NCBI GenBank assembly: GCA_965204745.1
Contig: OZ242010.1
Span: 132,007-196,006, forward strand
Direction of reading: 5' to 3'
Length of the DNA stretch: 64,000 nt
From: Candidatus Latescibacterota bacterium
GTDB taxonomy: Bacteria; Latescibacterota; UBA2968
Made by a program: the position numbers and the translations under genes. Positions 7,326 to 60,923 of the stretch are shown here, one piece after another. The first letter of the stretch is position 1, and each line of letters begins with the position of its first letter. The notes beneath the pieces were generated by a model. The model searched no databases and was not told where the DNA came from. It was given only the letters and a program-made list of their open reading frames with translations.

Positions 7326-7646
7326 ATGACCGAACAGACGCGCACAAAAATTCTGCAATCCACACCGACCGGCATTCGCAAACTCGACCACAAACGCCTG
7401 CGCGCCCAACTGCATCGCGCCGCGCCCCCAGTTGATTACGACCGATATATGCGATCCAAGGCGTGGCAAATCAAACGGCGAAAATTCCTCGCCCACTTCA
7501 ACTGCCAATGCGCCCTGTGCGGCAGCAAAGACCATCTGCACGTCCACCACTTGCACTATGAGACCCTGGGCAACGAGCGCGTGGAAGACGTCCTCGTGTG
7601 TTGCAGGCGGTGCCATTTCCTCGCGCATAAGAAAGGGGAGAGGTGA
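7326..7646 (+). CDS. Small HNH-like zinc-finger protein (~107 aa)
   Basis: CQCALCGSKDHLHVHHLHYETLGNERVEDVLVCCRRCHFLAH fits an HNH/Zn-ribbon pattern (CxxC...HH...N/E...CxxCH..H). The ATG is at 7326 and the C-terminal residues come from a heptamer array. The gene is divergent from uvrB. Confidence 0.45.
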   Translation: MTEQTRTKILQSTPTGIRKLDHKRLRAQLHRAAPPVDYDRYMRSKAWQIKRRKFLAHFNCQCALCGSKDHLHVHHLHYETLGNERVEDVLVCCRRCHFLAHKKGER

Positions 7647-7711
7647 GAGGCAAGAGGCGAGAGGCAAGAAGTGAGAGGCGAGAGGCGAGAGGCAAGAGGT
7701 GAGAGGCAAGC
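7637..7711. repeat. GA-rich heptamer tandem array (GTGAGAG / GCAAGAG / GCGAGAG), ~11 units, with a second short run at 7741-7780
   Basis: Read directly: gagaggtgagaggcaagaggcgagaggcaagaagtgagaggcgagaggcgagaggcaagaggtgagaggcaag. Confidence 0.8.
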
Positions 7712-7953: not shown

Positions 7954-9288
7954 ATGCCAAATATCATCATCATCACCACGCACGACACCGGGCGGCATTT
8001 GGGGTGTTATGGCGTCGAGACTGTGCATACGCCGGCCATTGACGCCATCGCCGAGGATGGATTCAAATTCACGCGCTATTTCACCACGAGCCCGGTGTGT
8101 AGCCCGAGTCGAGGGGCCATGCTCACGGGGCGGTATCCGCAGAGCAATGGCCTGATTGGCCTGACGCATTCGCATTGGAATTGGCGTTTTCATGAGGGCG
8201 AGCGGCACCTCTCGCACATCTTGCGCGACGCGGGTTATCACACGGCCCTGTTCGGCCTGCAACACGAAGCGGCCAACCTCGACGATCTGGGATTTGAGGC
8301 CGTGCATGCCAGGCGGCGTTCAACCGCGCCCGTGGTGGCCCGCACGCTGGCCGATTTTCTCCGCACAGACGCCGCACGCAAAGCCCCGTTTTACGCGCAG
8401 GTCGGCTTTTTTGAAACCCATCGCCCGCACGATTTTGGCGATGTCGAACCCGACGATAGCAAGGGCGTTTTCGTCCCGCCCTATCTCGTCGACAACGAGA
8501 TTTCTCGCAAAGCCCTCGCCTTGCAACAAGGCGCGATCCGCCGGGTGGATGACGCGGTGCGGATCATCACAGACGCGCTCGCGGAAAGCGGCTTGGAGGA
8601 CGATACCCTGCTCGTGTTCACGGTCGATCACGGCATTGAATTTCCCCGCGCCAAGTATTTTTGTTACGACTCGGGCATCGGCGTCGCCCTGCTGATGCGC
8701 TGGCCCGGTGGCGATGTTCGCGGGGGCATAACGTGCGACCACCTGCTCAGCAATGTCGATTTTTTACCCACCCTGATGGACCTCATCGGCCAACCCGTGC
8801 CCGGCAATGTCGAGGGCATCAGCTTTGCCCAAGTGTTCACAAATCCCGATGCGCCGCCGACGAGAGACGCGGTCTTTTCCCTTTTTTGTGACAGCGACAG
8901 CCGCAGCATTCGCACGGACCGCTACAAGTTCATTCGCCACTTCAGCCCGCGCCGTTTGATGGACACGCCGGTCGACATGACAATTTCGCCGGAGGCGGTA
9001 ATCTACGATTTTCTCGGTCGGTGCTTGATAGACGCACCGGGCACTGCAAAAAACCCGCCTAAACCGCGCATCCCACAGCCCGTAGCGCAACTCTACGATT
9101 TGGAAAACGACCCCAACGAGTTTGACGATGTCGCGCGCAATCCCGAATACCGGGACATCTATAACGCCTTGAGCCAACGCCTTTGGCAGTGGATGGAAGA
9201 CGTGAACGACCCCACGCTCAAAAGCCCGCTTCCCACGCCGTATTACTGGGAAGCCATGGCGGATTATCGCAACCCCCACGCGAAATAG
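7954..9288 (+). CDS. Cys-type sulfatase (arylsulfatase family), apparently without signal peptide
   Basis: MPNIIIITTHDTGRHLGCYG...TTSPVCSPSRGAMLTGRYP has the CxPxR formylglycine motif. The 7699-7953 part of the track ORF reads through repeat sequence, and the first ATG preceding the conserved N-terminus is 7954. Confidence 0.8.
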   Translation: MPNIIIITTHDTGRHLGCYGVETVHTPAIDAIAEDGFKFTRYFTTSPVCSPSRGAMLTGRYPQSNGLIGLTHSHWNWRFHEGERHLSHILRDAGYHTALFGLQHEAANLDDLGFEAVHARRRSTAPVVARTLADFLRTDAARKAPFYAQVGFFETHRPHDFGDVEPDDSKGVFVPPYLVDNEISRKALALQQGAIRRVDDAVRIITDALAESGLEDDTLLVFTVDHGIEFPRAKYFCYDSGIGVALLMRWPGGDVRGGITCDHLLSNVDFLPTLMDLIGQPVPGNVEGISFAQVFTNPDAPPTRDAVFSLFCDSDSRSIRTDRYKFIRHFSPRRLMDTPVDMTISPEAVIYDFLGRCLIDAPGTAKNPPKPRIPQPVAQLYDLENDPNEFDDVARNPEYRDIYNALSQRLWQWMEDVNDPTLKSPLPTPYYWEAMADYRNPHAK

Positions 9289-10530: not shown

Positions 10531-10625
10531 GCGAATGATCCATGCAGGGCAAGAGGCAAGAAGCAAGAGGCAAGAGGTAAGATTGAACTGAGCGGATGAT
10601 CCGAGAAGGGACACCGAGAAAAAAC

Positions 10626-17787: not shown

Positions 17788-19581
17788 TTGAACCGCAAAA
17801 TAATGCCCCTCAAATCCCATCGCGTTATGACCTTTATCAAACAAATCTACGACCTGCTCGAGGGCCGCCGCCTTTTTATGGCCTGTTCGATTGCCTGCGG
17901 ATTGATCTTTGCAGCGGCCAATTTGATTCCGCCATTGCTCATCCGCAAACTCATCCAGTGGCTCACCGAGGCGCAACCCGTTGGGGACCTCGTGTGGATC
18001 AGCATCCTGCTCTTTGGGGTTTATGTGTTGCGCGGCGTCTCGCGGTATGGGTATGGCTTTTTTTCCCACGTCACGGCGTACCGCGTGATGCACGCCTTGA
18101 TGACGCGGGTGTACGCGCATCTGCAAAATTTGTCCCACAGCTTTTTTAATCGGCAACGCACCGGCAATTTGATGGCGCGGTCTATCAATGACATCGAAGC
18201 CATTGAGGATTTTATCGCGCACGGCATCCCGGAAACCGCACTCGCTACGGTCATTCCCATCTCCATGATCACCGTGCTCTTTTACCTCAATCCGGAACTC
18301 GCGCTCATCGCCATTTTGCCCATACCGCTCGCGGCGTTTCTCGTGTACCGCTACGTGTCCAAAGTGCGTGCGATGTGGCAGGCGGTGCGCGAGCGGCTTT
18401 CCGAACTCGCGGCATTGGTGCAAGACAATTTGTCGGGCATTGCGGTGATCAAATCCTTTGCCCGAGAGCGCGAATGCGCGCGGCATGTGGCCGACCGCAG
18501 CGCGAAATTTCACGACCGCTTGATCGAGGCCAACACGATCTCGCTCTTGCCGGCCGGAATTATCGAAGCCACAGGTGGATTGGGCATTGTGTGCGTGATA
18601 TGGAGCGGGGGCAACATGGCCCTCGACGACCGCATTTCGGTGGCGGATTTGTTCGTGTTCATCGTTTATATGGCGCATATCTACCAGCCGTTTTTGCAGT
18701 TGGCGTCTTTTAATGACGTGCTTCAAAAAGCCGCTGTGAGCACCAACCGGGTTTTTCAACTGCTCGCTGTGCGCCCGGAAATTACGGACGCGCCGCACGT
18801 TGTCGCGCCCAAGGCTATCGCTTGGGATGTTCACCTCGACGGACTCACCTTTGGCTACGACCCCGCAGTACCCGTGTTGCACGACATCGACATTTACATC
18901 GGCGAAGGGGAAATCCTCGCGTTGGTCGGCCCCACGGGCGCGGGCAAATCCACGGTTGCCAATCTCTTGCCCCGGTTTTACGACCCACAGCGCGGCGCGG
19001 TTCGCATCGGCGGGCATGACCTGCGCGACATGCCCATCGCGTTTGTGCGCGAAAACATCGCTTCGGTCTTGCAAGACGTGTTTCTGTTTCACGGCACGGT
19101 CTATGAAAATCTGATCTTTGGCCGCCCGGATGCGTCCGAGCGTGCGGTGCGAGAAGCCGCCAATGCCGCCAATGCCCATGCGTTTATCCGCGACTTGCCT
19201 CGTGGCTACGACACGGTGATCGGGGAACGCGGCGTACGCCTGTCTGGCGGTCAAAAACAGCGGCTCTCCATTGCCCGCGCCCTCCTCAAGGACGCGCCCA
19301 TCCTCATCTTGGACGAAGCCACATCCTCTGTCGATGTCGAAACCGAGGCCCTGATTCAAGAAGCCCTTTCCCGGCTCACGCAAAACCGCACCACCCTCGT
19401 CATTGCCCATCGTCTTTCCACCGTGCGCCGCGCCCACGCCATTGTGGTGCTCGACGAAGGCCGCATAGTCGAAACCGGGAACCACGATACCCTCATCGCC
19501 CGCGAGGGACTCTACGCGCGCATGGTTCGGGCACAAGACCTCACGCGAGACGGGGATTTCCTTCCGCATGTTGCGGATTGA
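17788..19581 (+). CDS. ABC exporter, fused permease plus ATP-binding domains (MsbA/type-I exporter-like)
   Basis: Six-TM N-terminal half. The NBD has GPTGAGKST (Walker A), LSGGQKQRLSIARAL (signature) and ILILDEATSSVD (Walker B). There is no C39 peptidase domain. Confidence 0.85.
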   Translation: MNRKIMPLKSHRVMTFIKQIYDLLEGRRLFMACSIACGLIFAAANLIPPLLIRKLIQWLTEAQPVGDLVWISILLFGVYVLRGVSRYGYGFFSHVTAYRVMHALMTRVYAHLQNLSHSFFNRQRTGNLMARSINDIEAIEDFIAHGIPETALATVIPISMITVLFYLNPELALIAILPIPLAAFLVYRYVSKVRAMWQAVRERLSELAALVQDNLSGIAVIKSFARERECARHVADRSAKFHDRLIEANTISLLPAGIIEATGGLGIVCVIWSGGNMALDDRISVADLFVFIVYMAHIYQPFLQLASFNDVLQKAAVSTNRVFQLLAVRPEITDAPHVVAPKAIAWDVHLDGLTFGYDPAVPVLHDIDIYIGEGEILALVGPTGAGKSTVANLLPRFYDPQRGAVRIGGHDLRDMPIAFVRENIASVLQDVFLFHGTVYENLIFGRPDASERAVREAANAANAHAFIRDLPRGYDTVIGERGVRLSGGQKQRLSIARALLKDAPILILDEATSSVDVETEALIQEALSRLTQNRTTLVIAHRLSTVRRAHAIVVLDEGRIVETGNHDTLIAREGLYARMVRAQDLTRDGDFLPHVAD

Positions 19582-19676
19582 GGGGTCAGTCCCCGCACCG
19601 TGCCTAAGCGAGACGTGAGATGAGATTTTAGCCACGAGCGGGGTACAACTGGCGATAACCCGTTCAAAAACGAGCA

Positions 19677-19996
19677 GTGTGTAGGTCTTCTCCCGTCTTG
19701 CCTCTCACCTCTCACCTTTTTAGGCGATGCCTCCGTGCCTCGCCCAAAGATACAAGAGGATTTGGGGCCGGTGGGCCTCTCCCTCTCCCCTCTGCCCTCT
19801 TGCGTCTCACTTGCGGGCGGCGGACGGGCGGGTGGGCCTCTCCCCTCTGCCCTCTTACGTCTCACTTGCAGGAGGTGGACGGGCGGGTGGGTGGGCCTCT
19901 CCCTCTCCCCTCTGCCCTCTTACGTCTCACTTTCGGGAGGCGGACAGGCGGGGCGGACTGACAACTGACAACTGACAACTGACAACTGACAACTGA
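19677..19996. repeat. Composite repeat: ~60-bp tandem unit x3 (ggcctctcccctctgccctcttgcgtctcacttgcgggcggcggacgggcgggtg), then (GACAACT) x6 heptamers directly abutting IS left end
   Basis: Read directly. The + ORFs 19677/19727/19735 are its three reading frames. Confidence 0.8.
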
Positions 19997-20986
19997 CAAT
20001 GCGAATTAAGAGTTGAATCCATCGCGTACTTGTCTTTTTTTGAGGGCTCAATCATTTCACCCTTAAAGGAAGGAGCACGCGATGGATTGGCAAGATAAAC
20101 TCATTCACTTGTATGTCTATATTTGTCAGCAGTATGACCAAAAGCATCTGTGGTTTTATACGGAACGCATGAGTAATAACGACACGCCGACCTTCACAGA
20201 TGAAGAAGTGCTGACGATCTATTTGTTTGGGATCATGCAACAACACACGCAGATCAAGGCGATTTATACCTATACCAAGGATCATTTGTTCGACTGGTTT
20301 CCCAATCTGCCCACTTATGCAGGCTATATCCAGCGGTTGAACCGCTTGTGTGTGGTCTTCGCCCCATTGATTGAACAAATCCAAAAGGATAGTCCCGCAA
20401 CCGATGTCTCTGAACACACCTACTTGGTGGATTCCATGCCGATTGTCATGGCACAATCGGCACGTAGCGGAAAGGCATGTGTGGCTGAAGAACAACGGGC
20501 CAACAAAGGCCGCTGCGCTTCCAAAAAGATGTGGTATTACGGCACCAAACTGCACATGGTCGCACAAGACCGCGAGAATGGCCTCCCGAAAGCAGAGTAC
20601 TTCGGCTTGACAGGCGCAGCAGAGCATGACCTGACTGCTTTGCGACACGTCTTACCCGTTTTGCGTGATGGACACCTCTACGGCGATAAACTCTACGCCG
20701 ATCAGCCCTTAAAAGACACGCTTAGCAAACAGCAGAACCTGATCTTCGAGACGCCGGTGAAGCGAAAAAAGGGGCAAGAAAGCCTGACCGAGGCCGAAAA
20801 AGACTTTTCTCGGGCGGTTTCGAGCATGCGACAGCCTATAGAGGCCTTGTTCAGTTGGATTGAACGAAAGACGAACATCTCGATGGCGTCTCGGGTACGA
20901 TCCTATGAGGGCTTACTCGTTCATGTCTTTGGGCGATTGACCGCGGCTTGCTTCTTACTCGCTTTCTACTCTTAATTCGCATTGTT
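19995..20986 (+). mobile_element. IS982-family insertion sequence (~990 bp) with 18-bp terminal inverted repeats acaatgcgaattaagagt
   Basis: IRL at 19995-20013 and IRR at 20968-20986 are perfect reverse complements. The element has a single DDE transposase ORF. No clean target duplication is visible. Confidence 0.8.
20082..20975 (+). CDS. IS982-family DDE transposase (297 aa)
   Basis: It has the size and organisation of IS982 transposases. The conserved D...D...E spacing is implied by VDSMPI...LHMV...YADQP. The gene ends inside IRR. Confidence 0.75.
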   Translation: MDWQDKLIHLYVYICQQYDQKHLWFYTERMSNNDTPTFTDEEVLTIYLFGIMQQHTQIKAIYTYTKDHLFDWFPNLPTYAGYIQRLNRLCVVFAPLIEQIQKDSPATDVSEHTYLVDSMPIVMAQSARSGKACVAEEQRANKGRCASKKMWYYGTKLHMVAQDRENGLPKAEYFGLTGAAEHDLTALRHVLPVLRDGHLYGDKLYADQPLKDTLSKQQNLIFETPVKRKKGQESLTEAEKDFSRAVSSMRQPIEALFSWIERKTNISMASRVRSYEGLLVHVFGRLTAACFLLAFYS

Positions 20987-23921
20987 GACTACTTGCTATG
21001 CTCAACGTGACGATGAACTCAAGGGACGAGGAACCGCTCCCCTCGGTCACACTCGGAGAATCAATACTCAGCGTCGGCGGGTCATCATCATCGGTTAGCG
21101 TCAAATTCGCGTTGACCAAACTGCCCACGCCTTGATCGTTGCTTGCCACACCGGACACGGTCACGGCGCGATTAACCTCGTATTGACCGTTGTCCACCGC
21201 CGTGATCGCTACCGTGTCCGACGCGTTCGTCGTGTCCCCAGCCGCGATGGCAATCGTCGAATCCTGACCCACCGTGTAGGCACCGGTCACCGGGCGCACC
21301 GTGATCGTGGTCGCCTCACTCGACGGACGCGAGAGCGTCGCGCTCACCGTCGAAACACCGCCAGCCTCCGAGATGGACGAGGGCGACAGCATCAGCGTCA
21401 CATCCGGCGCGGCGTCATCGTCTGTGATCGTCAGGGCCCCGGAAGCCATCGATGCCACATCGTCGCCTGCCACCGTGCCAGACACGCCTAAGCGCTTGTC
21501 CGGTGCATCGGTCGTGTTGTTCACCGCCGTGATGACCACCGTGTCCGACGCGTTCGTCGTGTCCCCAGCCGCAATGGTGATCGTCGAATCCTGATCCACC
21601 GTGTAAGCACCGGTCACCGGCCGCACCGTGATTGTTGTCGCATCCCTCGATAGATGCGACAGCTTCGCGCTCACCGTCGCAACACCACCAGCCTCAGAAA
21701 TCGACGTGGGCGACAGTGCCAATGTCACCGTCGGTTTATCCAGCGCGATGCCATTTGGCGTAGTCAATCCTGTGGTGATGAGGTCTTCGACATTCGAGCC
21801 ATCGAGGTCGGCACGCAGAATCTTATCCGTGCTCCAGTCCGTCCAGTACATCTTTCCGCCCCCCACATCCAGCGCGATGTCAATTGGCGAACTCAATCCT
21901 GTGGTGATGAGGTCTTCGACATTGGAGCCATCGAGGTCGGCACGCTGAATCTTACCCGGGCTCTCTTCCGTCCAGTACATCTTGCCGCGTCCCACATCCA
22001 GCGCGATGCCAACTGGCGTATTCAATCCTGTGGTGATGAGGTCTTCGACATTCGAGCCATCGAGGTCGGCACGCTGAATCTTATCCGTGCCATAGTCCGT
22101 CCAGTACATCTTTCCGCCCCCCACATCCAGCGCGATGCCATATGGTTCTCTCAATCCTGTGGTGATGAGGTCTTCGACATTGGAGCCATCGAGGTCGGCA
22201 CGCTGAATCTTATCCGTGCCAGTGTCCATCCAGTACATCTTTCCGCCCCCCACATCCAGCGCGATGCCAGATGGATTCCTCAATCCTGATGCGCTGGTGA
22301 TGAGGTCTTCGACATTGGAGCCATCGAGGTCGGCACGCTGAATCTTACGTGCGTCATAGTCCGTCCAGTACATCTTGCCGCGGCCCACATCCAGCGCGAT
22401 GCCAACTGGCGTATTCAATCCTGTGGTGATGAGGTCTTCGACATTGGAGCCATCAATGTTGACACGCTGAATCTTATCCGTGCCATAGTCCGTCCAGTAC
22501 ATCTTGGGCGCGTCATCGTCTTCCAGCGTCAAAGCCGCACCGGTCACACGGCCCACGCCTTGATCGTTGCGTGCCACACCGGACACGGTCACGGCGCGAG
22601 TAACCTCGTATTGACCGTTGTCCACCGCCGTGATCGCTACCGTGTCCGACGCGTTCGTCGTGTCCCCAGCCGCGATGGTGATCGTCGAATCCGACCCCAC
22701 CGTGTAGGCATTGGCCACGGGGCGCACCGTGATCGTGGTCGCCTCACTCGACGGACGCGAGAGCACCGCGCTCACCGTCGAGACACCGCCAGCCTCCGAG
22801 ATGGACGAGGGCGACAGCATCAGCGTCACGGTAGGCGAGGCGTCATCGTCCTCCAGCGTCAATGCCGCACCGAGCACACTGACCGTGTCATCGCTTGCCA
22901 CACCGAACACGGTCACACGCTTACTCGGCGCATCGGTCGTGTTGTTCACCGCCGTGATGACCACCGTGTCCGACGCGTTCGTCGTGTCCCCAGCCGCAAT
23001 GGTGATCGTCGAATCCGACCCCACCGTGTAAGCACCGGTCACCGGGCGCACCGTGATTGTTGTCGCCGCCGCCAACCGATGCGACAGCTTCGCGCTCACC
23101 GTCGCAACACCACCAGCCTCAGAAATCGACGTGGGCGACAGTGCCAATGTCACCGTCGGTTTATCCAGCGCGATGCCAAATGGCGTAGTCAATCCTGTGG
23201 TGATGAGGTCTTCGACATTGGAGCCATCGAGGTCGGCACGCTGAATCTTATCCGTGAGCTGGTCCACCCAGTACATCTTTCCGCCCCCCACATCCAGTGC
23301 GATGCCCTGTGGCCTCCTCAATCCTGATGCTCTGGTGATGAGGTCTTCGACATTGGAGCCATCGAGGTCGGCACGCTGAATCTTACCCGGGCTCTCTTCC
23401 GTCCAGTACATCTTTCCGCCCCCCACATCCAGCGCGATGCCAACTGGAAAACTCAATCCTGTGGTGATGAGGTCTTCGACATTGGAGCCATCGAGGTCGG
23501 CACGCTGAATCTTAAACGTGTTGCTGTCTGTCCAGTACATCTTTCCGCCCCCCACATCCAGCGCGATGTGTGGCGTAATCAATCCTCTGATGAGGTCTTC
23601 GACATTGGAGCCATCGAGGTCGGCACGCCGAATACGACCTCCGAGAAGGTCCGTCCAGTACATCTTTCCGCCCCCCACATCCAGCGCGAGGCCCCGTGGA
23701 TTCGTCAATCCTGTGGTGATGAGGTCTTCGACATTGGAGCCATCCAAGTTGGCACGCTGAATCTTATCCGTGCCATAGTCCGTCCAGTACATCTTGAGCG
23801 TGTCGCCCCCGCTGCTCACCAGTGGTGTCGTCTGCGCTGTCGCGGGGGCGATCAGCAAGGGCATGACCAACACGGCGATCCATGTTGGAAGGGACAGAAA
23901 ACGGGGATAATGGGATGTCAT
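20955..23921 (-). CDS. Secreted YWTD (LDL-receptor class B) beta-propeller plus Calx-beta protein, C-terminally truncated or replaced by the IS982 insertion
   Basis: Signal peptide MTSHYPRFLSLPTWIAVLVMPLLIAPATAQ. There are 2 x 6 YWTD blades (KMYWTDYGTDKIQRADLDGSNVEDLITTGL...) and about 7 Calx-beta-like units (ISEAGGVSTVSA...ITAVDN). The last 10 codons (QCELRVESE*) are IS terminal sequence. Confidence 0.75.
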   Translation of the reverse strand: MTSHYPRFLSLPTWIAVLVMPLLIAPATAQTTPLVSSGGDTLKMYWTDYGTDKIQRANLDGSNVEDLITTGLTNPRGLALDVGGGKMYWTDLLGGRIRRADLDGSNVEDLIRGLITPHIALDVGGGKMYWTDSNTFKIQRADLDGSNVEDLITTGLSFPVGIALDVGGGKMYWTEESPGKIQRADLDGSNVEDLITRASGLRRPQGIALDVGGGKMYWVDQLTDKIQRADLDGSNVEDLITTGLTTPFGIALDKPTVTLALSPTSISEAGGVATVSAKLSHRLAAATTITVRPVTGAYTVGSDSTITIAAGDTTNASDTVVITAVNNTTDAPSKRVTVFGVASDDTVSVLGAALTLEDDDASPTVTLMLSPSSISEAGGVSTVSAVLSRPSSEATTITVRPVANAYTVGSDSTITIAAGDTTNASDTVAITAVDNGQYEVTRAVTVSGVARNDQGVGRVTGAALTLEDDDAPKMYWTDYGTDKIQRVNIDGSNVEDLITTGLNTPVGIALDVGRGKMYWTDYDARKIQRADLDGSNVEDLITSASGLRNPSGIALDVGGGKMYWMDTGTDKIQRADLDGSNVEDLITTGLREPYGIALDVGGGKMYWTDYGTDKIQRADLDGSNVEDLITTGLNTPVGIALDVGRGKMYWTEESPGKIQRADLDGSNVEDLITTGLSSPIDIALDVGGGKMYWTDWSTDKILRADLDGSNVEDLITTGLTTPNGIALDKPTVTLALSPTSISEAGGVATVSAKLSHLSRDATTITVRPVTGAYTVDQDSTITIAAGDTTNASDTVVITAVNNTTDAPDKRLGVSGTVAGDDVASMASGALTITDDDAAPDVTLMLSPSSISEAGGVSTVSATLSRPSSEATTITVRPVTGAYTVGQDSTIAIAAGDTTNASDTVAITAVDNGQYEVNRAVTVSGVASNDQGVGSLVNANLTLTDDDDPPTLSIDSPSVTEGSGSSSLEFIVTLSIASSQQCELRVESE

Positions 23922-24396: not shown

Positions 24397-25374
24397 TCAC
24401 GCCTCCGCATCCAATGCGCGCTGAAATTCACCCAGATCCGCGACTTGCACTGCCGAGCGATGCAACTGCTTGAGGCGTTGCAAATCTTCGATGGTCCGAA
24501 GGCGACCTGCGACCTGATCGGCCACGGCAGGATCAAAGCGAATCTCCAGCACGTCGAGAATCGCGTCCATGGTATGTTCCCTACCCCCTCGCTCGATACC
24601 CTGCTCAATGCCCTGCTCGATGCCCTGCTCGATGCCCTGCTCGATGCCCTGCTCAATGCCCTGCTCAATAAACTGTTCCTTGAAGTGCTCCTTGAGGTAT
24701 TGGGCAAACGATGATTCACGCATAATCGCGTCCATAAAACCCTCCTGAGAAAGAATTCGGTTGATGGTGGTCGGCTCATAAGCCAAACCACTCATGACCG
24801 CCAAGCCACCCAAAAAGTCGATCTTGCTTGAATGATCCAAGGGCATCACATCGGTCTTGCGGATACACTGACGCAACCATGCCTCTGAATCCACCCCCAC
24901 AGGAGGTCTCATCAACGGCGCGAAGGGAAGCAAGCCCGCCTGACCCCCTTCAAGAATGCTTTGCCCATCCATCTCACTCAGCCGAATCACCTTGTATTCC
25001 ACATAGATGAAATGGCCGGGAAGTTCTTGCGTGTAGCATCCTGGATCGTGCCGCCCGGCATTGCGCCGCAAGTAGATCACACAGGAATAGACCGGCAGGC
25101 CATACTGCGCGATAATGTAACCCATGTAATTGATCATGCGGCGATTCATCGGGGTGCCCGTGCTGTCGGCGGTTTGAAATTCCGTGTGAACCAAGGCCTC
25201 CTGACCGCCAATCCGCACGCGAATCAGATTATCGCTCCGGCGCATTTCAACGGTGGGTTGTTCGGTTTCGAGCAGACCGTCAACTTCCACGTCAACTCGT
25301 CCGAGAATGAATTGGACGAGGTCGTCTGGATAGTTTTGAATCAGGTGTTTGGAAATTGTATCGTACTCGGCCAT
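24397..25374 (-). CDS. Rpn/YhgA-like PD-(D/E)XK recombination-promoting nuclease (transposase_31 family) with C-terminal DUF4351-like tail and an internal (IEQG)n repeat
   Basis: N-terminal MAEYDTISKHLIQNYPDDLVQF...IRVRIGGQEALVHTEFQ (PD-(D/E)XK core). C-terminal ILDVLEIRFDPAVADQVAGRLRTIEDLQRLKQLHRSA. A paralogous copy is at 53698-54630. Confidence 0.75.
   Translation of the reverse strand: MAEYDTISKHLIQNYPDDLVQFILGRVDVEVDGLLETEQPTVEMRRSDNLIRVRIGGQEALVHTEFQTADSTGTPMNRRMINYMGYIIAQYGLPVYSCVIYLRRNAGRHDPGCYTQELPGHFIYVEYKVIRLSEMDGQSILEGGQAGLLPFAPLMRPPVGVDSEAWLRQCIRKTDVMPLDHSSKIDFLGGLAVMSGLAYEPTTINRILSQEGFMDAIMRESSFAQYLKEHFKEQFIEQGIEQGIEQGIEQGIEQGIEQGIERGGREHTMDAILDVLEIRFDPAVADQVAGRLRTIEDLQRLKQLHRSAVQVADLGEFQRALDAEA
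24590..24672. repeat. In-frame 12-bp coding microsatellite (ctgctcgatgcc / ctgctcaatgcc) x~7, encoding (IEQG)n in Rpn copy 1. Copy 2 has only about 3.5 units (53890-53935).
   Basis: Read directly in both paralogs. Confidence 0.85.
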
Positions 25375-25439
25375 GTGAATCCTCCGAAATAAAATCATAC
25401 CCATTCGATTTCAAAGCGAAAAAAAATAAAGAATCACGC

Positions 25440-25700
25440 TATTGTTTGTCAAGCGGTAAAATGACGATGGGATCGGTGGTCAGTCAAGCGAGAAGGACAG
25501 GCAAAGGGGCCTGTCCCTACGGATGATGAGGCGGGGGATGCGGAGGACACAGCGGAGTGGAACGATGAAGCGGCGGTAGGGTGGTGGGTGGATCTCGCCT
25601 CTTACTTCTTGCCTCTTACTTGGGGATAGGGCTTGCGGTTGGGCGGATGGGCGAGCACGGAGGCATCGCCCAAAAAGGTGAGAGGTGAGAGGCAAGACGG
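25440..25700. repeat. Mosaic repeat block (hairpin ggacaggcaaaggggcctgtcc, 'ggacacagcggagtgg aacgatgaagcgg' module, GA-heptamers)
   Basis: It shares modules with 23960-24060 and 51800-51870. Confidence 0.6.
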
Positions 25701-25783
25701 GAGAAGACCTACACTCACTGCTCGCCTTTGGACTGGCTACCGCCAGTTGTATCCCGCTCGTGGTGAAACGCCTATCTTCCCAC

Positions 25784-26785: not shown

Positions 26786-26897
26786 GGCGTGTCCTCAAGT
26801 GCGTGTCCATCCTCGCTTCCACCCCGCCGTGTGCGTTATCCCGGCCCATATTCCCCGACCTCTTGCCTCTCACGTCTTGCCTTTCACGTCTTGCCTC

Positions 26898-28082
26898 TCA
26901 CGTCTTCTGCTTCTCCTTTTTCGCAGCGGGGAAGAGGATGTTGTTGAGGATGAGGCGGTAGCCCGGGGAATTTTTGTGCAGGGCGAGTTGCGTGGGGGGG
27001 TCGTTGACGAAGTGTTGGTAGTCCTCTGGGTCGTGGCCCGCGTAAAATGTGAACGTGCCCCGGCCGATGTTGCCGTGGATGTATTTGACGTGGTTCGTGC
27101 CGGGGATGTCGCCCATGATGGTCACGGATTTTTTGATGCGGTCTTTGCGGAACGCCGTTGTTTGTCCCAAAAACCCGGGTACGATGGGCGTGTGGTTTTG
27201 CGTGAGCATCGTGGGCACGGGATCGTATTTGGCGGAAAATTCAAACAGGGAAAAAGCGTGCAGGTCCGCATCTTTGATCTGGCTCATTTCCGTGGGCGAC
27301 AGGTCGATGTCCGCGTGTTCGTATTCCATCGGGTCCAGCACCAGATTGAAGTTTTCAAAGGCCACTGTGCGCGAAAAGTCGAGTTTTTGTTGCGACATGG
27401 GATCCGCGGGGTCCCCGTCATAAACGCCATCGACAATATCGACCCCGCGGGCCGCGAGGGCAATGTCAAAGGTATCGGTTGCCGAGCACATGGCAAAGAT
27501 AAATCCGCCCTGCGTCATGTAGTTGTGAATGGCCCGTGCAACCGCGCCCTTGAGTTGCGAAACTTTGGCAAAGCCCAATTTGTGCGCGAGGGCCTCAAAC
27601 TCGGCCTGTTGCCGCCGATACCAGAGTTGGCGGCCGTGGCTGCGATAGAATTTGCCGTATTGCCCGGTGAAGTCTTCGTGGTGCAGGTGCAGCCAGTCGT
27701 AGTCCTCGAGTTGACCCGATAGCACTTCCTCGTCCCACAACGTGGTGTAGGGGATTTCCGCGTACGTGAGGGCCAAGGTCACGGCGTCGTCCCACGGCTG
27801 TTTGTGCGGCGGGGTATAGACCGCGATGCGCGGTGCTTTTTCGAGGTGCATGCGGTTCATGTTGGCGGATTCGATGTCCGCGTAGATGCGCGTGGCCTGC
27901 GCTGCGGAGATGGCCTGAAAAGATACGGCGCGGATTCGGGCTTCGCGCACAATGGTCTCGTGGAAGTCCATGAGAAAAGCCCCGCCCCGATAATTGAGCA
28001 ACCATTCCACGGGATGGCCCTCTTGCAAGGCCCAAAACGCAATGCCGTAGGCTTTGAGGTGATCGGTTTGCGTCACATCCAT
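26898..28082 (-). CDS. Hypothetical protein (~394 aa) upstream of moxR. The start is uncertain and the fold is unrecognised.
   Basis: The continuous ORF has normal composition from MDVTQTDHLKAYGIAFWALQEG... The upstream 170 codons of the track ORF are translated GA-heptamer and REP repeats and are not credible coding sequence. Confidence 0.45.
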   Translation of the reverse strand: MDVTQTDHLKAYGIAFWALQEGHPVEWLLNYRGGAFLMDFHETIVREARIRAVSFQAISAAQATRIYADIESANMNRMHLEKAPRIAVYTPPHKQPWDDAVTLALTYAEIPYTTLWDEEVLSGQLEDYDWLHLHHEDFTGQYGKFYRSHGRQLWYRRQQAEFEALAHKLGFAKVSQLKGAVARAIHNYMTQGGFIFAMCSATDTFDIALAARGVDIVDGVYDGDPADPMSQQKLDFSRTVAFENFNLVLDPMEYEHADIDLSPTEMSQIKDADLHAFSLFEFSAKYDPVPTMLTQNHTPIVPGFLGQTTAFRKDRIKKSVTIMGDIPGTNHVKYIHGNIGRGTFTFYAGHDPEDYQHFVNDPPTQLALHKNSPGYRLILNNILFPAAKKEKQKT

Positions 28083-28136: not shown

Positions 28137-28500
28137 AACAGAGGATAGGGTCAAGATGAGGAAGAGGGAAGAGGCAAGAGGTGAGAGGGAAGAGGCAAGA
28201 GGTGAGAGGGAAGAGGAGAGACGGGAGAGGGAAGAGGCAAGTTTAGCCACGAGCGGGGTACAACTGGGCGACAGCCAGTTCAAAGGCACAAAAGGCACAA
28301 AAGCCACAAGCGGGGTACAACTGGGCGACAGCCAGTTCAAAGGCGAGCAGGGTGGGTAGGGGCGATGCCCTCGCGCTCGACCAAAGATACGAGAGGGAAG
28401 ACGGGAGTTTAGCCACAACAGGCACAAAAGGCACAAGAGGCGAGCAGGGTGGGTAGGGGCGATGCCCCCGTGCTCGCCCAAAGATACGAGATGGGAAAGG
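28137..28500. repeat. GA-heptamer array followed by two tandem copies of a small hairpin element (gagcggggtacaactgggcgacagccagttcaaagg) and 'cgcccaaagatacgaga' modules
   Basis: Read directly. The same mini-element is at 19628-19665 and nested in 55860-55900. Confidence 0.75.
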
Positions 28501-28619: not shown

Positions 28620-28800
28620 TCATTATGGATCGCGGATTTTCGCGGATTAGGGGATTGCGCGGATTACCTCCCCCAACCCCTCTTGCTTCTCACGTCTTGC
28701 TTCTCACGTCTTGCCTCTCACGTCTTGCTTCTCACGTCTTGCCTCTCACGTCTTGCTTCTCACGTCTTGCTTCTCACGTCTTGCTTCTCACGCCTTTTGA
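28620..28800. repeat. aatccgcg-motif module (reverse orientation) followed by a 14-mer tandem array (cttgcttctcacgt / cttgcctctcacgt) x~8.5
   Basis: Read directly. This is the reverse complement of the GTGAGAG/GCAAGAG heptamer family. Confidence 0.8.
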
Positions 28801-53697: not shown

Positions 53698-54630
53698 TCA
53701 CGCCTCCGCGTCCAATTCGCGCTGAAATTCACCCAGATCCGAGACTTGCACTGCCGAGCGATGCAACTGCTTGAGGCGTTGCAAATCTTCGATAGCTCGA
53801 ATGCAACCTGCGACCTGATCGGCCCCGGCAGGATCAAAGCGAATCTCCAGCACGTCGAGAATCGCGTCCATGGTATGTTCCCTACCCCCTCGCTCAATGC
53901 CCTGCTCAATGCCCTGCTCAATGCCCTGCTCAATAAACTGTTCCTTGAAGTGTTCCTTGAGGTATTGGGCAAACGATGATTCACGCATAATCGCGTCCAT
54001 AAAACCCTCCTGAGAAATGATACGCTTGATGGTGTTCGACTCATAAGCCAAGCCACTCATGACCGCCAAGCCACCCAAAAAGTTGATCTTGCTTGAATGA
54101 TCCAAGGGCATCGCATCGGTCTTGCGGATACACTGACGCAACCATGCCTCTGAATCCACCCCCACAGGAGGTTTCATCAACGGCGCGAAAGGAAGCAAGC
54201 CCGCCTGACCCCCTTCAAGAATGCTTTGCCCATCCACCTCACTCAGCCGAATCACCTTGTATTCCACAAAGATGAAATGGCCGGGAAGTTCTTGCGTGTA
54301 GCATCCTGGATCGTGCCGCCCGGCATTGCGCCGCAAGTAGATCACACAGGAATAGACCGGCAGGCCATACTGCGCGATAATGTAACCCATGTAATTGATC
54401 ATGCGGCGATTCATCGGGGTGCCCGTGCTGTCGGTGGTTTGAAATTCCGTGTGAACCAAGGCCTCCTGACCGTCAAGGCGCACGCGAATCAGATTATCGC
54501 TTCGACGCAGGTGGGTTGTTCGGTTTCGAGCAGACCGTCAACTTCCACATCAACTCGTCCGAGGATGAATTGGACGAGGTCGGCTGGATAGTTTTGAATC
54601 AGGTTTGGAAATTGTATCGTACTCGGCCAT
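53698..54630 (-). pseudogene. Rpn/YhgA-like PD-(D/E)XK gene, copy 2, disrupted by at least two frameshifting deletions near the 5' end
   Basis: ~90% nt identity to 24397-25374. A ~7-nt deletion at ~54505 and a 2-nt deletion at ~54606 relative to copy 1 split the N-terminus (MAEYDTISK) into ORF 54550-54756, out of frame with the body ORF 53698-54483. Confidence 0.65.
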
Positions 54631-60735: not shown

Positions 60736-60858
60736 GAGGCAAAAGGCGTGAGAGGTAAGAGGTAAGACGTAAGACGTAAGACGTAAGACGTAAGACGTAA
60801 GACGTAAGACGTAAGACGTAAGACGTAAGACGTAAGACGTAAGACGTAAGACGTGAGA
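60727..60858. repeat. Heptamer tandem array: (GTAAGAC) x~13 preceded by GTGAGAG/GTAAGAG variants
   Basis: Read directly: gtaagacgtaagacgtaagacg... Confidence 0.9.
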
Positions 60859-60923
60859 CGGTCACCGCGCTGTCTCTCTCGAGTTGTCAGTTGTCAGTCC
60901 GCCCTCAACACAGGAGAAATGTC

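Follow-up and report, generated by a model that had tools for sequence, protein, structure and literature searches.

An IS982-family insertion sequence at a hybrid junction next to a truncated YWTD/Calx-beta gene: a probable IS-mediated deletion in a Latescibacterota bacterium

Deletions of adjacent DNA mediated by an insertion sequence (IS), as well as recombination between IS copies, are classical for IS1, IS10 and IS903. Adjacent deletions by these elements leave a lone IS at a novel joint, which shows no target duplication and keeps one flank of the old insertion site. Here, we describe an IS copy with these same features. It is located in a stretch of 64,000 nucleotides (nt) from Candidatus Latescibacterota bacterium (assembly GCA_965204745.1, contig OZ242010.1, positions 132,007 to 196,006), which we refer to as the window, and it separates an array of GACAACT heptamers from a gene for a YWTD/Calx-beta-like surface protein that lacks its 3' end. 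We consider it likely, with a probability of about 0.7, that this IS is located at the breakpoint left by an IS-mediated deletion, in which a gene for a secreted YWTD/Calx-beta(-like) protein lost its 3' part.

The element belongs to the IS982 family, i.e., ISs of about 1 kb that encode one DDE transposase of about 290 amino acids (aa), the stop codon of which lies within the right inverted repeat (IR). Members of this family range from 845 to 1282 bp, with IRs of 11-32 bp and direct repeats of 2-10 bp, and 57/69 catalogued members start with AC while 12/69 do not (PMC7335449). The window element shares this layout. Its single transposase gene (20082..20975, + strand; 297 aa) ends within the right IR, and its 984 bp (19999..20982, + strand), its IRs of about 19 nt and its direct repeat of 5 bp are all within the respective family ranges. 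The G+C content is 48.7%, compared to about 58-60% in the flanks.

Comparison with 14 other copies of the IS fixed its ends at 19999 and 20982, which shifts the boundaries that had been assigned in a preliminary description of the locus. The termini read ATGCG...CGCAT (in full, ATGCGAATTAAGAGT...ACTCTTAATTCGCAT). Left IR (19999..20017, + strand; ATGCGAATTAAGAGTTGAA) and right IR (20964..20982, - strand) comprise 19 nt each, of which 18/19 match and the first 15 are perfect; the right one holds both the stop codon of the transposase (+ strand) and that of the truncated gene (- strand). A first pass gave IR arms of 22 nt with 95% complementarity (19996-20017 / 20964-20985), and the 18-mer of the IR has no other occurrence in the window. 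An AC at 19996-19997 was considered as the IS tip and rejected, since the comparison of copies identifies it as heptamer flank. Likewise, a model with 3-bp duplications (ends AATGCG...CGCATT) was discarded because one of the other copies (L007; fetched loci are numbered with a leading L) fits the 5-bp model only. The window copy has no duplication under either model. When the IR is placed in register with the family consensus AC(N)6T(N)5TT, A1, T9, T15 and T16 match, while position 2 is T and not C in 15/15 copies. That is, the tip is AT in contrast to the AC of most IS982 members.

The transposase matches the NCBIfam model NF033520 ("IS982 family transposase") with 149.3 bits (cutoff 130; E 1.4e-43) over profile positions 1-241 of 243, while IS5-family models reach 38-47 bits with cutoffs of 110-140. 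Pfam matches are DDE_Tnp_1_3 (PF13612) and DDE_Tnp_1 (PF01609). Across 14 aligned homologues with identities down to 48%, D117, D202 and E254 do not vary, and they probably form the catalytic DDE triad. I and E are found at +6/+7 after E254, i.e., no K/R, and R262/K263 follow at +8/+9; this agrees with the "atypical DDE" of the family, which lacks a K/R 6-7 residues past the E. Membership in IS982, already proposed from the sequence alone, is supported, since the score exceeds the curated cutoff of the hidden Markov model and size, IR length, DDE residues and duplication length fit the family. The element is thus a previously uncatalogued and recently active IS982 member, which can now be described by its exact ends, duplications of 5 bp and a TGWCA target. 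A scan for the transposase in GTDB species representatives with the patterns used found no member.

The 14 further copies are from 12 loci (L004-L007, L015-L021, L126) of a 5.28-Mb relative and other assemblies. All are 984-985 bp long and 97.2-99.4% identical to the window copy, and they form two subtypes. Within one sample, identical copies are found at different loci; transposition is therefore recent. The exact transposase is part of a 90% cluster of 66 protein variants, with 54 and 11 more in neighbouring clusters, and the source genome itself holds at least one more full-length transposase variant (P0254) as well as one fragment (P0158). A perfect 5-bp target duplication is present in 12/14 sister copies. 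The respective sequences are TGTCA/TGACA (10 times) as well as TGTTA, CAGTA and TGGTA (once each); for L020, the duplication matches at 4/5 positions. At L016 (1288-2401), a full copy directly follows the initial 130 bp of the IS, and the whole lies within one TGACA duplication, which adds a 13th copy with a duplication when the nested partial copy is taken into account. That is, a copy entered the TGTCA at 126-130 of a resident copy, the remainder of which was then lost by recombination. A related IS from another sample, which has the same IRs and a transposase with 72% identity, shows 5-7-bp duplications (TAGACA, TTTCA, TGGTACA) outside of arrays.

For the window copy, the left flank ends with ...GACAACTGACA and the right flank begins with TGTTGACTACTTGC. 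The respective pentamers TGACA (left) and TGTTG (right) share 2/5 positions only, so there is no target duplication, and the two flanks are therefore not from one insertion event. Each flank has its own origin. From 8428 to exactly 19999, the left one is colinear (96.8-98.8% identity) with the ABC-transporter locus in the 5.28-Mb relative. At this point, the relative shows an uninterrupted (GACAACT)22 array, i.e., 16 further units, followed by a MacB/FtsX gene (L022). This array shows the left junction in its empty state. It also bears out the earlier observation that the left end of the IS abuts a (GACAACT)6 array (19957..19998, + strand; as a tandem repeat called at 19957-19999 with period 7, 6.1 copies and 100% matches). 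The array ends in TGACA, the reverse complement of TGTCA, and the junction is at the canonical position within the heptamer.

On the right, native coding sequence reaches up to 20983. Here, the alignment with a homologous gene (L002) reaches ...AGTAGTCAACA, and ...GCAAGTAGTCAACA of the window aligns to GCCAGTAGTCAGCA of the homologue. The break is thus at ...SIASSQ-Q(ca|a)-CELRVESE*. The preliminary description was right to place the stop codon inside the right IR, while the break is 3 nt further than assumed and the open reading frame (ORF) reads eight full IS codons instead of ten. The IS-derived tail (20955..20982, - strand) provides the third base of the Gln codon, then CELRVESE and TAA.

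The truncated ORF (20955..23921, - strand; 988 codons) is convergent with the ABC-transporter gene. It breaks about 30 residues into a Calx-beta domain of about 115 residues that is complete in homologues. The remaining start of this canonical domain (20983..21074, - strand; about 30 residues, PPTLSIDSPSVTEGSGSSSLEFIVTLSIASSQQ) is too short to score PF03160 on its own. Nevertheless, this stump of about 30-33 residues shows 85-88% nucleotide identity to the starts of the PF03160 domains in L002, which themselves reach 155 bits in 4 stretches. Both L002 and L127, an allele of it from one sample (94.8% identical), continue past the break with ...SSQQVTVGYEDAGTGTATSGDDY..., after which more PF03160 Calx-beta domains and a pair of dockerin-like repeats follow; the L002 peptide runs on as ...EGSGSSSLEFIVMLSVASSQQVTVGYEDAGTGTATSGDDYTAITAGTLTF..., i.e., a canonical Calx-beta domain. 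A gene that natively ends at the same residue is thus ruled out, and the native C-terminus is gone, as had been suspected. Its former identity was guessed to be a dockerin. Here, the homologues do end in two DVDGDG...F.DI..IIRY repeats, but with 20.5 bits these stay below the PF00404 cutoff of 22.9 and are dockerin-like only. No such module is present in the 988-aa ORF. By position in L127, about 2.7 kb of coding sequence are missing, compared to about 1 kb by best sequence match to L002; the two estimates span 0.3-0.9 k residues. A tblastn search of the window with the C-terminal 699 aa of the homologue gave cassette-level matches in a giant gene only (see below) and no missing tail.

L002 carries an IS of its own: at L002:3577-4384, a Calx-beta domain is interrupted by a different element (DUF4096, IS4/5 type), which L127 lacks (uninterrupted at 9248-9254). 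Furthermore, an 85-bp remnant of the right end of the IS studied here is found at L127:12470-12580, where it abuts (AGTTGTC)2.5 + GTCCGCCCCGCC 400 bp past the stop codon of the full-length homologue.

As a result, annotation of the 988-aa ORF should mark it as a truncated gene, whose last residues are encoded by the IS and which is without the Calx-beta array and the dockerin-like module of its homologues. At best, the remaining ORF may yield a secreted protein that lacks a C-terminal anchoring module; otherwise it would be a pseudogene.

A deletion would explain these observations as follows. One IS copy would have inserted into the heptamer array downstream of the ABC-transporter gene, and the joint on the gene side would have arisen at a second target inside the Calx-beta domain. 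This may have happened either by homologous recombination, with one copy in the array and a second, directly oriented one in the gene, or by intramolecular transposition of a single copy into the neighbouring gene. Both routes would leave one IS and remove the DNA in between, i.e., what remained of the array, the spacer between the genes and about 0.3-0.9 k codons for Calx-beta domains plus the dockerin-like C-terminal module, such that the remaining ORF would read eight codons into the right IR before it stops. L016 provides a precedent in the same IS for recombination between adjacent direct copies, and the geometry of L127, where an IS remnant and an array are found 400 bp past the stop codon, would permit a short local deletion. 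Compared to the classical deletions by IS1, IS10 and IS903, the event in the window is reconstructed from flanks and relatives, and the one-step and two-step routes are indistinguishable. The preliminary description had stated that the IS replaced the 3' end of the gene. The end is indeed missing, but without a target duplication this reflects a deletion or rearrangement and not a simple insertion.

Several points weigh against the deletion. Beyond the array, the 5.28-Mb relative carries unrelated genes (MacB/FtsX and others), and its genome contributes no close YWTD orthologue to the top matches. The target on the gene side (CAACA/TGTTG) is not the commonest pentamer, and the transposition mechanism of the IS982 family is not established. 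Moreover, no intact allele at this same locus was found. The closest homologues (85-91% nucleotide identity), L002 and L127, continue past the break point and are in a different gene neighbourhood. Searches of public genome and metagenome collections with the last 262 residues of the gene gave at most 57% aa identity. Anchoring by the ABC transporter yielded the empty heptamer site (L022) without a YWTD gene as well as a locus with 90% identity that is not syntenic (L023). Anchoring by the MoxR gene on the other side of the truncated gene yielded short sponge-metagenome contigs only, of which one has the arrangement of the window (L010) and one an unrelated large gene (L008). The latter encodes a protein of more than 1282 aa after MoxR (L008:2941-6786) that is unrelated to the YWTD gene and belongs to another population; the region downstream of MoxR is therefore a strain-variable hot spot. 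Finally, the evidence comprises the window and the fetched loci, and a second copy with reciprocal flanks elsewhere in the source genome is possible, which would fit an inversion or translocation.

Such an inversion or translocation, i.e., recombination between distant or inverted IS copies after which the 3' part of the gene survives beside the partner copy, is the strongest competitor of the deletion, although we consider it rather unlikely. It yields the same hybrid junction without duplication, and with P0254 and P0158 the source genome offers further transposase copies. Synteny with the 5.28-Mb relative is lost for at least 10 kb right of the array, and the segment 19999-25727 is strain-variable. 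On the other hand, no reciprocal junction was found among the 127 fetched loci or in the window, and the window is also free of other fragments of the IS. A local deletion needs fewer events, and L127 shows a geometry suited for it.

A simple insertion at the point where the gene naturally ends, or close to it, with only an incidental likeness of ORF end and IS terminus, is highly improbable. It is compatible with an ORF that is open for 988 codons and with an insertion that is fixed in three assemblies, but it is refuted by the L002 alignment, in which the break lies inside an otherwise complete Calx-beta domain, by the missing duplication, which 12/14 sister copies do have, and by the empty site in the relative, which identifies the left flank as intergenic DNA of the ABC-transporter locus. 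Reading the sequence with the IS spliced out, the ORF continues through the heptamers in an unrelated frame. Just as improbable is an assembly chimera in which two IS copies were collapsed and unrelated flanks joined: assemblies typically break at near-identical multi-copy repeats of 1 kb, and in the same population repeats do terminate short-read contigs, yet the junction is identical in three assemblies, i.e., in the window, base for base in a long-read assembly of another sample (L001; 6.6x contig, no differences from 19413 to 22092) and in a 19.5-kb single-read contig of a third sample (L003; 1x), which spans both flanks by several kb and includes the ABC gene, the IS, the YWTD gene and the MoxR gene.

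The heptamer array at the left junction raises the question of target choice. Targeting of repetitive extragenic palindromic (REP) elements is reported for the IS3, IS110, IS4, IS256 and IS5 families but not for IS982 (Tobes & Pareja 2006, PMC1525189). REP-targeting ISs (IS1397/ISKpn1, IS621, ISPpu9/10, ISRm22) pile up in a dispersed, intergenic and genome-specific repeat that provides a safe landing site. Copies of the IS studied here likewise accumulate in an intergenic repeat. At L004:1422-4390 (ERZ25068394 contig_1, about 4.97 Mb), three complete copies of subtypes B-A-B' are in one heptamer array, with 12 bp in one gap and nothing but the 5-bp TGTCA duplication in the other, which indicates repeated independent insertions into one array. 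The two systems differ in the target itself, which is a tandem heptamer array here and a palindromic hairpin in the case of REP.

In total, 9/12 sister loci abut (AGTTGTC)n or (AGTAGTC)n arrays. Such arrays cover 0.12% of the window and hold 8/98 of its TGWCA pentamers. A naive test for array preference based on these shares (0.12% of the window, 8% of the pentamers) was rejected, since it is overstated once only intergenic pentamers are counted. Since 6/12 intergenic TGWCA pentamers of the window are already inside arrays, the 9/12 are unremarkable: given a null model of pentamer preference plus selection against genic hits, about 50% in arrays are expected (binomial P of about 0.07 for the observed 9/12). 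The data thus support that the IS prefers a near-palindromic TGWCA-type pentamer, which intergenic (GACAACT)n arrays present every 7 bp. Both this clear preference and the recurrence in heptamer arrays set the element apart from the review of the IS982 family, which mentions no target-site preference (PMC7335449). That the IS actively homes to dispersed heptamer arrays, i.e., (AGTTGTC)n followed by GTCCGCCC, as safe havens is conceivable but doubtful. If true, it would be the first repeat-targeting member of IS982 and the first such IS with a microsatellite-like tandem array as target instead of a REP hairpin. In that case, genes next to the arrays would be prone to repeated deletion, with the arrays as starting points, as for the surface-protein gene studied here.

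Beside the array at the junction, perfect or near-perfect heptamer and 14-mer arrays fill intergenic regions of the window at 699-1042, 7634-7710, 10548-10582, 26861-26906, 28160-28241, 28681-28796 and 60743-60895. Their units include ACTGACC, ACTGACT, AGGCGAG, GGCAAGA and TCTTGCCTCTCACG as well as (AAGACGT)17. Arrays of the GACAACT type are regularly followed by GTCCGCCC(CGCC), and the motif AGTTGTCAGTTGTCAGTCCGCCC recurs at 60882. The heptamer arrays are a genome-wide intergenic repeat system reminiscent of the short tandemly repeated repetitive (STRR) heptamers of cyanobacteria.

With regard to the wider relevance, the event is ordinary: it is genome decay at an IS-mediated rearrangement, i.e., mainly a point of annotation and genome dynamics and no new kind of biology. 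Still, intergenic heptamer arrays of this lineage gather IS copies, which are linked to local rearrangements (window, L016, possibly L020), and large repetitive surface-protein genes are repeatedly hit by ISs (window; L002 vs. L127). Such hits bear on the variation of symbiont surface repertoires between strains. The host is probably an uncultured, sponge-associated bacterium, as the ABC transporter is 74% identical to a protein from a metagenome-assembled genome (MAG) of Latescibacterota and related contigs are from sponge metagenome projects.

The 988-aa ORF matches Ldl_recept_b (PF00058) with 340 bits in 10 stretches and shows a 129-bp periodicity with 4.9 and 5.9 copies. From its N-terminus (all coordinates on the - strand), it starts with a stretch whose hydrophobic sequence MTSHYPRFLSLPTWIAVLVMPLLIAPATAQ resembles a signal peptide (23796..23921), followed by a first YWTD propeller of five blades (23160..23795), Calx-beta-like cassettes 1 and 2 (22507..23159), a second YWTD (LDL-receptor class B) propeller of six 129-bp blades (21738..22506), cassettes 3 and 4 (21075..21737; about 110 aa each) and the domain stump. 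The presence of a signal peptide is a prediction from the sequence. Eukaryote-like YWTD/Calx-beta/dockerin surface proteins of sponge-associated bacteria likewise combine a signal peptide with repeated modules of one propeller and two cassettes; the ORF differs from them in being truncated and in the five blades of its first propeller. A five-bladed YWTD propeller would be unusual. Five blades are present in the window (23160-23795) and in L001, while the single-read L003 (P0001) has six; this difference may be a slippage polymorphism of the 129-bp repeat or a read error.

Left of the array, the 3' end of the ABC-transporter gene is at 19581. Downstream of this gene follows a G+C-rich tandem repeat (19781..19952), previously described as three copies of 60 bp. 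A tandem repeat is present, but its period is 55-65 bp, with 2.9 copies and 80% matches; in the 5.28-Mb relative, 2 copies are present. Immediately downstream of both the ABC-transporter and the MoxR gene, we find the two arms of a 60-nt inverted repeat with 98% complementarity (19679-19738 / 25655-25714), which extends to about 115 nt at about 90% (about 19632-19746 / 25648-25763) and has these two copies only in the window. It brackets a strain-variable segment of 5.9 kb that comprises the IS, the truncated gene and an ORF of 335 aa. The latter (24397-25404, - strand) adjoins the truncated gene and contains an (IEQG)n-coding 12-bp repeat. A paralogue with about 95% identity is found 29 kb away (53698-54483, - strand), and neither of the two matches a Pfam or NCBIfam family.

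The internal cassettes of the truncated gene are homologous to the 345-bp units of a giant gene in the window, with 72-75% nucleotide identity and a maximum of 81% for stretches of 150 nt or more. They had been called clear homologues of the giant gene's Calx-beta cassettes, of which the homology holds at this level while the Pfam label is not reached: even at E of at most 1, there is no match to PF03160, and the best match is LapA (PF20579) with 18.6 bits vs. a cutoff of 27. A profile-profile comparison with the canonical Calx-beta domain of the homologue gives a probability of 91.6% (E 8e-7; 99 columns, full length). A sequence search of the PDB returned no solved relative. Based on their sequences, the internal cassettes are best regarded as remote Calx-beta homologues, for which the label "Calx-beta-like" can be defended; the only canonical domain is the truncated last one. 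A previously suggested exchange of cassettes between the two loci is not reflected in the identities, since the 72-75% to the giant gene compare to 87% between the two halves of the 988-aa gene (internal duplication), with no sign of recent exchange.

The giant ORF (30554-51370, - strand; 6938 aa) comprises about 32 tandem 345-bp Calx-beta-like units as well as He_PIG domains and ends with a borderline dockerin/EF-hand match (22.7 bits vs. a cutoff of 22.9). The cassette of about 110 aa also has counterparts with 50-57% aa identity in complete sponge-associated MAGs from many different phyla (L024-L095). These include Arenicellales, Nitrospirales, Alphaproteobacteria, Binatia, Vicinamibacterales and others, many of them apparently from the same host-associated sequencing projects. 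This distribution across phyla could reflect horizontal spread of the module.

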